A stretch of DNA of 64,000 nucleotides, from NCBI RefSeq assembly GCF_013122565.1, contig NZ_CP053258.1; one strand, given 5' to 3'. The stretch is from Escherichia coli (GTDB lineage: Bacteria > Pseudomonadota > Gammaproteobacteria > Enterobacterales > Enterobacteriaceae). This document shows positions 12,148 through 16,910 of this stretch, piece by piece. The notes under the pieces were generated by a model that did no database searches, was not told the DNA's origin, and worked only from the letters and a program-made list of their open reading frames with translations. Both the position numbers and the translations under genes were made by a program. How positions within the stretch are numbered: the first letter of the stretch is position 1; each line of letters begins with the position of its first letter.

Positions 12148-15100
12148 TTATCTGAAGCTGTATTTTATCCCCAGCGCTCCGGAGATAGCATTGCTCCCGT
12201 GACCTCCTGCCTGATATGCGACTCCGCCATTCACTGACAGATTTTGAGTAATCACCCCATCAATACCTGTCTTTATCTCTCCCTGATTTCGGCCACCTGA
12301 CAACAACTGGCTGTCACCACTCATTTTAACACCAAATTCATGAGTGTTATGGATCCAATTTGCCTCTATATACGGACGGAACTCCCGCCCGGTATCCTTA
12401 TCCAGGGTGCTTTTCACATTCCAGGATGCACGAATACCTGCTTTTGTCTGAAGATTATTTTTCCCAGTGCCCTGTACCACAGTTCCGTTATCTTCCTGAT
12501 GTGTATCCGGAGTAACCCCCATCCAGATAGCCTGCAGATGAGGCTGTAACCAGAATTCACCTTTAATTCCCTCAGGTGACGTCCATGTATGCACATTCAG
12601 GTTATACCCTCCGCCCACGGAAGCGGTTAAACCATTCAGGTTATATTTTTCTTCTTCCAGCCCGTCGCCTTTCACTGATGCATTAAACCAGTTATATTGC
12701 ATCCAGGTTTCAGCAAAGAGGCCTGTTGCATTTGCCCCATTCTGATACCAGGTTCCGTATAACCCGGCCGAATAACCATCCAGTGTATTTCTGGCCCGTT
12801 TCTTACTCGTGTGGTTTATCGTTTTACCTTTTGCGTTTGCATAGCCACCCATAATGCCCAGGGTAAAGTCACCCAGTTTTTCAGCGTGGTATTTATAAAT
12901 GTCCCCTCCAAGTTGATTGATAAATTGATTGGTTGTTGTTTTATTTTGCCCATCACTAAGCTTACCAGAGGTTCTTCCGCCCGTAATCTTCATCCACACA
13001 GATGCAGACTCAGGCTGTGTATTATCACTCACGGCACTGAATTGCTTACGCTCATTCAAATCCATGAGGAACAGTGAGTTAGCCAGTGCCATATTGGTAG
13101 CATAACTTCCGTTCTCCGGTCTGTATTGCCGGGTATCAGATGTGGGAAGATGACTGGTTAAATACCATCCCTTATTATCTGTCCCACTCACGTTTCCTTT
13201 CTGCAGTGTGTAATCATAAGCTCCGGCAACCACGCGGTTCTTCAGAGAGAATTCTGCATCAGAATTTCCCTCTATAGAAATAATATTAATACCCTCTCTC
13301 GTCTGACCACCACTGCCACCTTCATTGACATAAACGATGTCACTTTGACCAGAGGTATTACCTTTCACCACCAGACGATCCGTAAGAGAATTATCTCCTT
13401 CAAGCACACCACCAAGAGAAATAACACTACCCGGTGTCCCGGTATAATTTGCCACGGTAAGAGTATTACCTGCACTTTCTTTTGTAGGATTCAGAATGAT
13501 ATTTTTGTTATTAACAAGACTGCCATTCACAGTAGCAGAGAGCAGCTTTGCCGTACCAAAGCTTAAGTCAGCATCATTCGTAATATTCCCGTTTATAATG
13601 CTGTTATTAATGACAACGCTTCCATTGTTATTAACCGAACCATTAATTGTTGCCTGGTCTGAGATGTTTATATAGGCATTCTGGCTGACAGCCATATCTG
13701 CATTGACTACTGCAGAACCCAATATAATCCCACCATTTTTAACGTTAACCCCCCTCGCCTGTGTCAATGTACCTTCATAAGACATGAATCCTGAGTTATC
13801 TTTGATAAGAGCACCATTCCCTGACAACTCTGTATTAAAATCATAATCGCCAGCAAGATTGAGAATGAAATCGCCATCATTCTTAATTTTTGCTCCGGCT
13901 ACAATACCATCAGTATTGATTGTGGTTGTTCCGTCAAGAGCGCCCCCCTCATCGATTCTTAAACGACCAGCGGAGTTTACGGTTGTATCGGTTGCTGTAC
14001 CGCCTGATGTTACAGCCAGAAGGCCCCCGTTCTCTAATACAACATTTGATGCATGGTTTTGTGAAACGAAGAAGCTGCCATAGCGGTTTGTTCCGGTAAT
14101 GGTCGCCCCCGTAGAGGTAAACAAATTACCTCCGCCGCTTAATGCAATATTCAGCGCACTGGCACCTGCATCCACGCGTATTTCTCCGCCATTTTTGATA
14201 ACAGTTCCGCTTACGTTCCCTCCTTCATATACAAACTGGAAGCCCCCCTCATTGATAACAGTAGAAGAAGCACTCCCCCCCCCGCTTACCGCCTGTAATC
14301 CTCCGCTGTTCAACACCGTTCCGTAAGCAACCCCACCTGAGAGCACATATTCCCGGCCGTCATTATTTGCCACAGTACTGGTTGCAGAAGCCCCTGAATG
14401 AATATACTGCCGCCCTTCCTTATTAAGGATTGTACCAGCCACATTGCCTGCATAAGCGTTTAACCTGCCATTCTGATTTACACTTGCTCCTGACACGGTA
14501 CCACCAGAAACATTGATCATGCCGCCGTCAAAAATTTGAGTTCCAGATGCCTCGCCACCTGAATAGACAGTTTGCTTGCCGTCAGAGTACACTTCAGCAG
14601 CAATGGCACTGCCGCCAGAAGAGACGTTCTGGTTACCGCCGCTTAGTTTTGTTCCCGTGGCTGTACCACCTGCACTGACGCGCTGGAAACCGCTGGTATT
14701 AACAGTAGCACCAGTGGCTTCACCATTGCTGTATATATACTGGTTTCCTCCATCATTGATAATGGCATTATAAGATGCACCACCATTTGAAACATTTTCG
14801 CGCCCACTATTATTAATCATGGTACCACTGGCAAGACCATTCGATAGAACACTCTGTGTTCCTCCACTGTTAATAATGGTGCTCTCCGCATAGCCTCCTG
14901 ATGAAATATTCACATAACCACTTTGATTTATTCTTGTACCAGAAGCTATGCCATCGGCATAGATATTTTGCTTACCACCAGAGAACACTTCAGTAGCACT
15001 GGCTTTACCCCCAGAGGAGATATTCTGTGTACCACCGCTCAGTTTTGTTCCCGTGGCTATGCCACCCGCACTGACTCGCTGAAAACCGCCGGAATTAACC

Positions 15101-15749: not shown

Positions 15750-16910
15750 CTAATTAATTAGATAATTGTGCAAGGAATCAATGACCCCACACACCTGTTT
15801 CCCTGTAATAAGCCGGGTGCATTCAAACTGTCTGTCCGTACCTTTATGCACAGGACACCAGAGAAAATCAGCATGATCGAAGTTATAATTGGTGTTATCC
15901 CAGCATCCATTACACCCATGAGAGTTAAACACTCTCCACGGAGTGTAAAACTCACTGTCTGGCCTGCTAAAACCGCTAATTAAAACTACAGGGATTCTGG
16001 TTGCCCATGCCAGCCACGATAAACCACTGGCTAAGCCGACAAAAAAGCTGGCATGTCGTAATAAATCCACCCGTTCCTGGAGAGGCAGCACTCCGGTAAA
16101 ATCTTCGGCCCCCCATGGAATATGATTCCAGACAAAGCTATTGCCTGTATGAGCATTGCGGTCAATACACAAAACCCGATACCCAAGTTTCTTTAAATGA
16201 CTAATCACTTCAGACCATCCAAGACCATTATTCCAGTGTTTCGCCTGTGCTGTAGACTGCACGGCAATACAGACATAAGGGTCAGGGATTTTCCTTTCAG
16301 CTGAAAGATTGAGTCGGGGTGGTTCTTCCTGAGGAGATACTCCCAGGATATATCCGGCATTACGATGAAAACCAACCAGACGGAAATCTACAGGCTGGTT
16401 ATCTGTATCTCCATTAAAAAACAAACCAATTCTGTACGTTGCATATGGTTTACCTTCATATTTATCCTGAGTTGCTGTAAACTTTATTTCCGGATAATTA
16501 TCTGAGAATAGTGTTACGAACTCTTCACTAACGGAGCATTCCAGTTTGCATTGATGTTTTATACGGAATTTTTCAGCGTAGTGAAACCATGCAATAATAT
16601 CTCCCAGCGTTCCTGTCGGAAATGATATTAAAACATGCTTACTCTTCAGGTTCATTACAGTGTCAAGGCAGGGGTGAACTTCTCCTTTTTTAAATGCCTG
16701 CACCCTAAACTTCACATAATATTTTTTTGTGCTTGTTACCCACCCTCCAGACGTATCGCATGAAAATAAAATATTTCCTGAATCATCATCAATGATATTA
16801 ACATGCCACTCGCCTTTCGGAAGCAAAACTCTTGCTCCATCATTAAAATCATACAGAATACCTTTATCTCCTTCTTGGGTTGGAGTTCCTGTTAATGATA
16901 CAAAAGCCAT
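15750..16910 (-). CDS. Autotransporter adhesin heptosyltransferase (TibC/Aah-like glycosyltransferase)
   Basis: 386-aa ORF ending 14 nt upstream of the adhesin gene on the same strand, the same order as tibC-tibA and aah-aidA. Contains a Cys-rich segment (HGCNGCWD...WCPVH). The family call rests on context plus overall resemblance, not on a search. Confidence 0.7.
   Translation of the reverse strand: MAFVSLTGTPTQEGDKGILYDFNDGARVLLPKGEWHVNIIDDDSGNILFSCDTSGGWVTSTKKYYVKFRVQAFKKGEVHPCLDTVMNLKSKHVLISFPTGTLGDIIAWFHYAEKFRIKHQCKLECSVSEEFVTLFSDNYPEIKFTATQDKYEGKPYATYRIGLFFNGDTDNQPVDFRLVGFHRNAGYILGVSPQEEPPRLNLSAERKIPDPYVCIAVQSTAQAKHWNNGLGWSEVISHLKKLGYRVLCIDRNAHTGNSFVWNHIPWGAEDFTGVLPLQERVDLLRHASFFVGLASGLSWLAWATRIPVVLISGFSRPDSEFYTPWRVFNSHGCNGCWDNTNYNFDHADFLWCPVHKGTDRQFECTRLITGKQVCGVIDSLHNYLIN

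Follow-up and report, generated by a model that had tools for sequence, protein, structure and literature searches.

Which glycosylated autotransporter system does this Escherichia coli chromosome carry, and is it still whole? AIDA-I together with Aah is a textbook case of a cytoplasmically O-heptosylated adhesin, and in porcine as well as human diarrhoeagenic E. coli it serves as a virulence marker. A sequence-only reading of the 64,000-nucleotide stretch analysed here (hereafter the window) had described two open reading frames on the same strand, a glycosyltransferase followed by an adhesin with a gap of 14 nt, and this description proved exact: both frames lie intact on the minus strand, the transferase first (15750-16910, 386 aa) and the adhesin behind it (12148-15735, 1195 aa), separated by a spacer at 15736-15749. 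Read directly, the spacer has the letters AAGGTTGTTGATGA, inside which AAGG forms a Shine-Dalgarno-like ribosome-binding motif. The same reading placed the pair among the glycosylated self-associating autotransporters of the AIDA-I/Aah, TibA/TibC or EhaJ/EgtA type and left the member unnamed. That family is supported by the models TIGR04414 and NF033176 and by matches to solved structures, with glycosylation itself being predicted, and pairwise comparison with all three systems now gives the member its name, Aah/AIDA-I. We thus hold it very probable that the locus is an intact two-gene aah-aidA operon, whose enzyme would act on its adhesin through the mechanism proposed below. The aah-aidA pair itself is well known in E. 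coli, so that the locus is ordinary in kind; NCBI already lists identical copies of both proteins, which PGAP names AIDA-I and autotransporter strand-loop-strand O-heptosyltransferase, the identical adhesin being WP_171459375.1 / QJU24225.1, 'autotransporter adhesin AIDA-I'. What is unusual is its chromosomal seat, its shortened repeat region and the identity of that region to classical AIDA-I, which is 73%.

We assigned the frame at 15750-16910 (minus strand) to aah, an autotransporter adhesin heptosyltransferase of the BAHT family. Its product scored 602.4 bits against TIGR04414, a curated equivalog model of Aah/TibC with a cut-off of 200 bits, covering profile positions 3-373 of 374, and it matched the TibC crystal structure 4RAP with E = 4e-196; the similarity to heptosyltransferases on which the earlier interpretation was staked is therefore present. 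As befits a BAHT gene, aah sits directly upstream of its autotransporter substrate, on the same strand, and an AGGAG motif stands 9 nt ahead of its ATG. The catalytic base, sugar-binding residues, thumb and iron finger of TibC have been defined (PMC4358343), and every one of these functional residues that we checked is conserved in Aah: D104, T220, K224, R280 and W299 correspond to TibC D110 (catalytic base) and T226, K230, R286 and W305 (ADP-heptose binding), F259/V260 to the F265/V266 of the beta-hairpin thumb, and C333, C336, C352 and C364 to the iron-finger cysteines C339, C342, C358 and C370. In TibC, mutation of D110, K230, R286, W305 or the four cysteines abolished or largely diminished heptosylation, or led to loss of iron binding, and both the iron finger and the beta-hairpin thumb are needed to form the dodecamer (PMC4358343). 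The aah stop codon, TAG, falls six codons before the stop position of the allele on plasmid p48B2a, leaving Aah 5-6 residues short of other alleles at its C-terminus; this earlier stop accounts for the 14-nt gap, as in plasmid alleles the two genes overlap by 1-4 nt.

Among solved structures, TibC matched the transferase best, and the TibA passenger structure 4Q1Q matched adhesin residues 58-217 (E = 1e-45); we therefore considered whether the locus might instead be the adhesin-invasin system TibC/TibA of ETEC. However, TibC was the sole BAHT protein matched among solved structures, and so a best match to it does not show orthology. Pairwise identities refute this identification: the transferase is 93.5% identical to the Aah of p48B2a and 87% to classical Aah, compared to 70% to TibC and 65% to EgtA, while the adhesin, over its full length, is 78% identical to AIDA-I and only 30% to TibA. 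The classical allele is found, for example, on the ETEC4067 plasmid (WP_001398178.1 and WP_000143483.1); with residues 1-1287 of classical AIDA-I the window adhesin aligns end to end through its residues 1-1194. Moreover, the adhesin passes the AIDA-I-specific model, its 22 repeat units compare with 12 in TibA, and the neighbours of tib differ, with CaiF/GrlA-family and LuxR-type regulator genes lying upstream; a TibC/TibA locus is accordingly most improbable. The EgtA/EhaJ system of EPEC/EHEC, which likewise has its BAHT-family transferase gene ahead of the autotransporter gene, is more improbable still, and its identification with our locus is refuted by pairwise identities (65% to EgtA and 25% to EhaJ), by counts of S-[GA]-[GA] loops (1 in EhaJ versus 34 in the window adhesin) and by the repeat profile, which finds no 19-residue unit in EhaJ; in addition, ehaJ lies between acrD and narQ, not beside hipA. 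Since the pairwise identities are highest to Aah and AIDA-I, we assigned the locus to these.

The second frame, aidA (12148-15735, minus strand), encodes an AIDA-I autotransporter adhesin precursor, an assignment based on NF033176, the Pfam domain set and the exact NCBI match. The adhesin scored 2437.9 bits against NF033176 (auto_AIDA-I), the AIDA-I-specific NCBIfam model with a cut-off of 1200 bits, compared to 242 bits against the Ag43 model NF033177 (cut-off also 1200), and it fell far below the respective cut-offs of the MisL, ShdA, YfaL and ECSE_1600 models. Its Pfam domain set is complete (ESPR, 12 AIDA matches, AC_1 and the autotransporter beta-domain). Among solved structures, 4MEE, the transport unit of AIDA-I, matches its C-terminal 447 residues (E = 7e-283), and the passengers of TibA and Ag43 match it at about 1e-45 to 5e-49. 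An extended signal peptide (15589-15735, minus strand; Pfam ESPR at residues 1-28) spans residues 1-49, ending in GNAFA before QNVSS, and is 98% identical to that of the p48B2a allele and 84% to that of classical AIDA-I; presumably it is cleaved after residue 49, as we take from the published 49-residue signal peptide of AIDA-I. The autochaperone/junction region (residues 739-844, 13204-13521, minus strand; Pfam AC_1, E = 1e-24) holds the motif LNPTKES/AGNTL, identical in the window adhesin, both plasmid alleles and chain 4MEE, with the cut at S754/A755 (codons 13471-13476), as well as D786 and E805. We take these residues to be equivalent to S846/A847, D878 and E897 of prototype AIDA-I, which reportedly derive from Suhr 1996 and Charbonneau 2009; with an offset of 92 between the two numberings, the residue types agree at S754/A755, D786 and E805. 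A 12-stranded beta-barrel translocator follows at residues 913-1172 (12220-12999, minus strand; Pfam PF03797, E = 3e-32), and TIGR01414 covers residues 753-1194 with 382 bits. The protein ends in YSFR, one Arg past the usual terminal Phe, with AGA in place of TGA. We rejected this extra residue as the mark of a defective allele, as allele P0003, found on 83 contigs, ends likewise, and so do P0005 and P0006.

Between the signal peptide and the junction lies the repetitive stretch of the passenger (residues 51-605, 13921-15585, minus strand), made up of ~22 degenerate 19-residue strand-loop-strand units and recognized by periodicity, profile and TIGR04415; it is the predicted heptose acceptor region. 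Over residues 50-620, the identity at lag 19 was 0.31, compared to 0.104 +/- 0.013 in 500 shuffles (z = 16.3), the next-best lags being 38, 37, 75, 56 and 57. With an ad hoc profile derived from the units, 21-22 were recovered between residues 70 and 594; applied to related adhesins, this profile gave 26-28 units for the closest plasmid allele, 25-29 for classical AIDA-I, 12 for TibA and 0 for EhaJ. TIGR04415, the NCBIfam model of a 38-residue strand-loop-strand repeat, matched 15 stretches of the adhesin, and the 12 Pfam AIDA matches run from residue 51 to 605. Tandem Repeats Finder found no repeat in the DNA, and so the repeats, visible at the protein level only, are degenerate; the count of about 20 degenerate 19-residue repeats given beforehand was accurate. 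Residues 83-588 contain 29 S-[GA]-[GA] loops, which resemble those loops of TibA in which Ser-313 (NSGG) and Ser-322 (TSAA) have been mapped (PMC4358343).

Taken together with what is known of the family, these features suggest how the two proteins would work. Aah would be a cytoplasmic, iron-containing heptosyltransferase, expected to be a dodecamer by analogy with TibC, moving heptose from ADP-heptose, an LPS core precursor, onto serines in the 19-residue strand-loop-strand loops of the AIDA-I precursor prior to its export. The glycosylated precursor, directed by its extended signal peptide of 49 residues, would then cross the inner membrane via Sec, the C-terminal 12-stranded barrel would insert into the outer membrane, and the passenger would be threaded out and fold into a beta-helix aided by the autochaperone segment. 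AIDA-I probably cleaves itself at S754/A755, with the mature adhesin remaining non-covalently attached, and at the surface it would mediate diffuse adherence to epithelial cells, autoaggregation and biofilm formation. In the described system, adhesion by AIDA-I depends functionally on aah (PMC6555100; PMC4358343). For the window locus, we infer expression, heptosylation, processing and adhesion from family knowledge and the conserved residues, while autoaggregation and biofilm formation via passenger-passenger contacts would follow from homology to the AIDA-I, TibA and Ag43 passengers (cf. PMC9289746).

The genes lie on the chromosome, flanked by hipA and an MFS transporter gene, with an IS3 remnant abutting the aah side; hipBA and a second large autotransporter are found beside them. 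The plasmid location of the described AIDA-I strains thus does not hold for the window copy, though membership in AIDA-I is unaffected, as location does not define the protein family. Across the 5,426 complete E. coli genomes searched, all full-length aidA matches were plasmid-borne, and only seven chromosomes carried aidA at this site, as degraded relics. The exact proteins, in the same hipA-side context, were found in four assemblies (four contigs), which argues against an assembly artefact. A literature search on chromosomal or allelic aidA variants, EhaJ/EgtA and the processing residues returned no paper describing the window allele or its site, and a search of 9800-19200 gave no match to an Rfam RNA family.

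Upstream of aah, an AT-rich leader of 217 nt (16911-17127, minus strand), the presumed promoter region, is common to p48B2a-type plasmids, its 95% homology with p48B2a ending exactly at 17127. In a simple promoter scan, the minus strand of this leader showed no strong sigma-70 site, and sites were no more numerous than in shuffles, so that an aah promoter within it is a presumption. Beyond the leader lies an IS3-family transposase remnant (17128-17604), recognized by its similarity to IS3-family / ISEc31-like transposase genes (85-87% identity, in more than 2,000 genomes) and annotated in CP52E as an incomplete IS3-family transposase. At the sensitivity of blastn, the window and p48B2a share no IS upstream of aah: their homology ends at the same nucleotide, and past this point their IS3-family sequences show no relation. 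On the other side, a repeat search found a 26-nt direct copy (12100-12125, plus strand), 81% identical to the end of the IS3 remnant (17128-17153); the 5.0-kb module lies between these copies, and plasmid homology starts at 12128. The plasmid-type terminator hairpin 3' of aidA is broken at the module boundary. We also considered an IS origin of the left flank and rejected it, as the stretch 11890-12100 corresponds to a piece of a gene which, in other chromosomes, carries the annotation 'chromate transporter'.

These boundaries bear on whether the locus, its frames intact, could nonetheless be a silent or decaying relic of IS-mediated transfer from a plasmid, having lost its native regulation and giving no phenotype in the source strain. 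None of our observations speaks against the identification; the reservations bear on function in the source strain. The IS3 remnant at -217 cuts the upstream region, the coding strand lacks a strong promoter match and the terminator hairpin is truncated. The intact form is also rare, the exact protein being limited to four contigs, and the seven relic genomes share this insertion but have lost two segments of it by deletion (window 12006-12771 and 14051-17339), the remainder being 99.8% identical, which indicates that the locus is prone to decay. However, both frames are full length against the family models and no functional residue that we checked has been lost, the leader is 95% conserved with plasmids whose full-length copies are annotated as intact, and the sequence is identical in four assemblies, arguing against ongoing decay in the window lineage. 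We therefore regard a silent relic as unlikely and retain the reading of an intact aah-aidA operon.

The chromosomal allele is a module which elsewhere occurs on plasmids of E. coli from pigs and farms. It is conceivable, though we think it doubtful, that the 5.0-kb module is a discrete unit carried between plasmids and chromosome by IS3-family elements, and that its diverged passenger, shorter by six repeats, may differ from classical AIDA-I in binding or self-recognition specificity. If so, carriers would not co-aggregate with cells bearing classical AIDA-I, or would bind another receptor.

The window copy brings no new biology, and its practical points are modest. Typing by the aidA gene presumes a plasmid, yet this lineage has an intact chromosomal copy; the related strains holding the same insertion in stages of decay form a small natural series of adhesin genes gained from plasmids and then lost; and the passenger, being both shortened and diverged, could be used as a naturally occurring variant to map the repeats needed for adhesion versus self-association.

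To place the locus among known systems, it shares with the classical AIDA-I/Aah of diffusely adhering and porcine E. coli its gene order and domain architecture, and the processing motif and the catalytic residues are conserved as well. Identity to classical AIDA-I is 92% in the junction and barrel but only 73%, with indels, in the repeat passenger; the window adhesin (1195 aa) is shorter than the classical one (1287 aa) by a net 92 residues. The classical genes overlap, in contrast to the 14-nt gap seen here, the classical copy is plasmid-borne and the window copy chromosomal, and, by blastn, the window and the classical plasmid do not align upstream of aah or over the 5' end of this gene. 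Closer to it are the non-classical plasmid alleles (p48B2a NZ_CP128583.1, LD39-1 and ETEC1730), whose DNA is 95% identical to the window across the entire 5.0-kb module, 217-nt leader included. For the p48B2a-type allele, identity is 95% in the aligned passenger, 97% in the junction and barrel, and 93.5% in Aah, but replicon and flanks are unlike those of the window. In addition, p48B2a has 339 nt (113 aa, six units) that are absent from the window allele and that are flanked, in p48B2a, by two direct repeats of 90 nt sharing 89% identity. With repeats only 73% identical to the classical ones and 113 residues fewer than in p48B2a, receptor binding by the window adhesin could differ.

TibC/TibA (ETEC H10407 type) has a transferase of the same BAHT family, with identical functional residues, and the same type of passenger repeat, and TibC has been reported to heptosylate AIDA-I (PMC4358343). 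It stands further off at 70% (transferase) and 30% (adhesin) identity, versus 87% and 78% for Aah/AIDA-I, and, as a further difference from TibC, the window Aah has Ala at residue 294, as does classical porcine Aah. Finally, Antigen 43 and other self-associating autotransporters have a related beta-helical passenger with autochaperone and barrel (Ag43 structures, E about 1e-48), but the window adhesin scores far under the Ag43 model cut-off (242 vs 1200), and Ag43 has no dedicated transferase gene.

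The locus consists of two intact open reading frames on the minus strand, aah (15750-16910, 386 aa) followed by aidA (12148-15735, 1195 aa), separated by a spacer of exactly 14 nt (AAGGTTGTTGATGA), and so the coordinates, sizes, gene order and gap given in the sequence-only reading were all correct. The spacer includes a Shine-Dalgarno-like AAGG, and an AGGAG lies 9 nt ahead of the aah ATG. At 15750-15767 aah ends in a TAG that comes six codons before the stop of the allele on plasmid p48B2a, the closest plasmid allele and a non-classical one; the usual overlap of aah and aidA is thereby lost and the 14-nt gap created. 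Aah is 5-6 residues shorter than the products of other alleles, the shortening falling within a variable tail. At its own end (12148-12153) aidA encodes YSFR and not YSF, one Arg past the normally terminal aromatic barrel residue, because TGA reads AGA here. Such an ending is also found in the database AIDA-I alleles P0003, P0005 and P0006, one allele being present on 83 contigs, and we therefore rejected the idea that it is a defect.

The similarity of the 386-aa protein to heptosyltransferases, predicted by the earlier reading, was confirmed: it scored 602 bits, over nearly the whole profile, on TIGR04414, the Aah/TibC equivalog model of autotransporter strand-loop-strand O-heptosyltransferases (cut-off 200), compared with 26 bits on the LPS heptosyltransferase I model and 19 bits on RfaQ, and a search of solved structures matched it to TibC (4RAP, 4RB4), ungapped, at E = 4e-196. 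The catalytic base of TibC, Asp-110, its sugar/phosphate ligands Thr-226, Lys-230, Arg-286 and Trp-305, its thumb residues Phe-265 and Val-266 and its iron-finger cysteines 339, 342, 358 and 370 (PMC4358343) are all kept in Aah, as D104, T220, K224, R280, W299, F259, V260, C333, C336, C352 and C364. One position holds Ala rather than the Pro of TibC, as in most database Aah alleles, suggesting that the enzyme may be unrestricted to ADP-D,D-heptose.

The 1195-aa protein scored 2438 bits on the AIDA-I-specific model NF033176 (cut-off 1200), and fell far under the cut-offs of the Ag43, MisL, ShdA, YfaL/EhaC, BafA and ECSE_1600 family models. Its Pfam architecture was complete, with an ESPR (residues 1-28), AIDA repeats (51-605; 12 matches to the AIDA model), an AC_1 autochaperone (739-844) and a beta-domain (913-1172). 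The C-terminal 447 residues matched the crystallised AIDA-I transport unit (4MEE, E = 7e-283), and the passenger the beta-helix structures of TibA and Ag43 (E about 1e-45 to 5e-49). Also conserved were the motif LNPTKES/AGNTL, which would contain the processing site S846/A847 reportedly placed in AIDA-I by Suhr et al. (1996), and D786 and E805, presumably equivalent, at a constant offset of 92, to the AIDA-I residues D878 and E897 reported by Charbonneau et al. (2009).

The 19-residue passenger repeats proposed earlier proved to be real. Within residues 50-620 of AIDA-I, identity at lag 19 was 0.31 vs 0.104 +/- 0.013 in 500 shuffles (z = 16.3), the next-ranking lags (38, 37, 75, 56 and 57) being multiples of 19 or one less, and a profile made from the units themselves placed 21-22 of them at residues 70-594. 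Fifteen stretches matched the 38-residue 'strand-loop-strand' repeat model of NCBIfam. A DNA-level search detected no tandem repeat, and so the units are degenerate. The passenger carries 29 Ser-[Gly/Ala]-[Gly/Ala] loops (residues 83-588), resembling the TibA loops in which heptosylated serines were mapped, Ser-313 in NSGG and Ser-322 in TSAA (PMC4358343).

Which member of the family this is, left unnamed before, was settled by comparison with described relatives taken from annotated genomes. Aah was 93.5% identical to its p48B2a counterpart and 87.3% to the classical porcine protein (itself identical to UniRef F8SKF2, 'AIDA-associated heptosyltransferase'), vs 69.6% to TibC and 64.5% to EgtA, while end-to-end alignment of the adhesin gave 78% identity to classical AIDA-I (1287 aa), vs 30% to TibA and 25% to EhaJ. 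Tib and eha identities were rejected on these values, and by its sequence the locus is an aah-aidA allele. As a caution for gene-name searches, RefSeq uses ehaJ for heptosyltransferase and adhesin alike in E. coli E2348/69 (positions 5440-9852 of the stretch taken from NC_011601.1), where the literature name of the transferase is egtA.

Homology to plasmids spans 12128 to 17127. Downstream it breaks inside the terminator hairpin that plasmids have after aidA; upstream it breaks 217 nt before aah, where the remnant of an IS3-family element (17128 to about 17604) starts. Within this remnant the initial 26 nt (17128-17153) are 81% identical, in direct orientation, to 12100-12125, both starting with TG. 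An IS3-type end thus lies on either side of the 5.0-kb module, which we read only as a hint of capture by an IS. In p48B2a homology ends at the same nucleotide, followed by an IS3-family element that blastn found unrelated to the remnant. Further left, 11890-12100 shares about 92% identity with the 5' portion of a gene (1037 aa) that some 55 other E. coli chromosomes carry under the annotation 'chromate transporter' (with IS-rich surroundings in one example examined), and this flank is therefore itself a leftover of other accessory DNA. Compared with p48B2a, 339 nt (113 codons, six units) are missing from the window allele. In p48B2a the stretch is flanked by two 90-nt direct repeats 89% identical to each other; judged from these alleles, the loss is of the kind that recombination between repeat units produces.

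At least 80% of the locus was found in 29 of 5,426 complete E. coli genomes, every copy plasmid-borne and either about 95% (p48B2a, LD39-1 and ETEC1730 type) or about 85% identical (classical plasmids, from pig ETEC and oedema-disease strains). Chromosomal matches in this set numbered seven, none of which covered more than 27% of the query; all lie at the window's site and are 99.4-99.8% identical in what remains. In the CP52E genome the retained parts are set apart by two deletions, of window 12006-12771 and of 14051-17339. The window thus holds the intact form of an insertion of which the complete genomes keep only relics. Both exact proteins occur in four assemblies with a shared context (MFS transporter, aah, aidA, hipA, hipB, ECSE_1600-family autotransporter). 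This decay in related strains, the IS truncation of the leader upstream of aah, a promoter scan that gave no convincing match there and the broken aidA terminator all speak for the main rival reading, a locus silent in the source strain, which we nevertheless consider unlikely.

We favor an expressed pair acting according to the established family model (PMC4358343, PMC6555100, PMC9289746). Aah would transfer heptose from ADP-heptose to repeat-loop serines in the cytoplasm; the AIDA-I precursor would be exported via Sec and its barrel inserted into the outer membrane, and the passenger would be secreted, fold into a beta-helix, undergo autoprocessing and be retained at the surface, where it would be predicted to mediate autoaggregation, biofilm formation and, in a glycosylation-dependent manner, adhesion.

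Elsewhere the window consists of ordinary E. coli chromosome, with lsr genes, an ECSE_1600-family autotransporter, hipBA, a sugar-utilisation cluster and tcu genes, followed by a chaperone-usher operon that is apparently intact and by the stretch from ydeP to ddp and osmC. The autotransporter (4457-9877, plus strand, 1806 aa, intact; NF011422 4118 bits, cut-off 2335) lies shortly before hipBA, so that 12 kb of this strain hold two large autotransporters of the AIDA type. Its repeats are of T5SS/PEP-CTERM type and the heptose-acceptor repeat model did not match it, and so it gives no sign of being an Aah substrate. Between the two lies the hipB-hipA toxin-antitoxin pair (10082-11688, plus strand), with aidA convergent with hipA; read-through antisense to hipA past the truncated plasmid-type terminator is conceivable. 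An accessory cluster at 17656-26412 (annotation transferred from CP52E, 99.8% identity) encodes an MFS transporter, a cellulase-family glycosylhydrolase, a LacI-family regulator, tcuR-tcuA-tcuB (tricarballylate utilisation) and another MFS transporter. The apparently intact fimbrial operon (27278-33687, plus strand) starts with ORFs of 203, 239 and 883 aa, which to judge by order and size would be the major subunit, the chaperone and the usher, and continues with ydeS, ydeR and ydeQ; in CP52E an IS3 element replaces window 27467-31317, reducing it to gene fragments, and an IS1 absent from the window interrupts a sulfatase gene (about 38130-38140).

Both exact sequences are already public, AIDA-I as WP_171459375.1 / QJU24225.1 ('autotransporter adhesin AIDA-I') and Aah as WP_171459376.1 ('autotransporter strand-loop-strand O-heptosyltransferase'); the system is thus known and correctly named. 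Identity to classical AIDA-I ranged from 73% in the repeats through 79% in the distal passenger and 84% in the signal peptide to 92% in the junction and barrel, and this diverged passenger, the six-repeat deletion and the chromosomal site are minor variations on that system.
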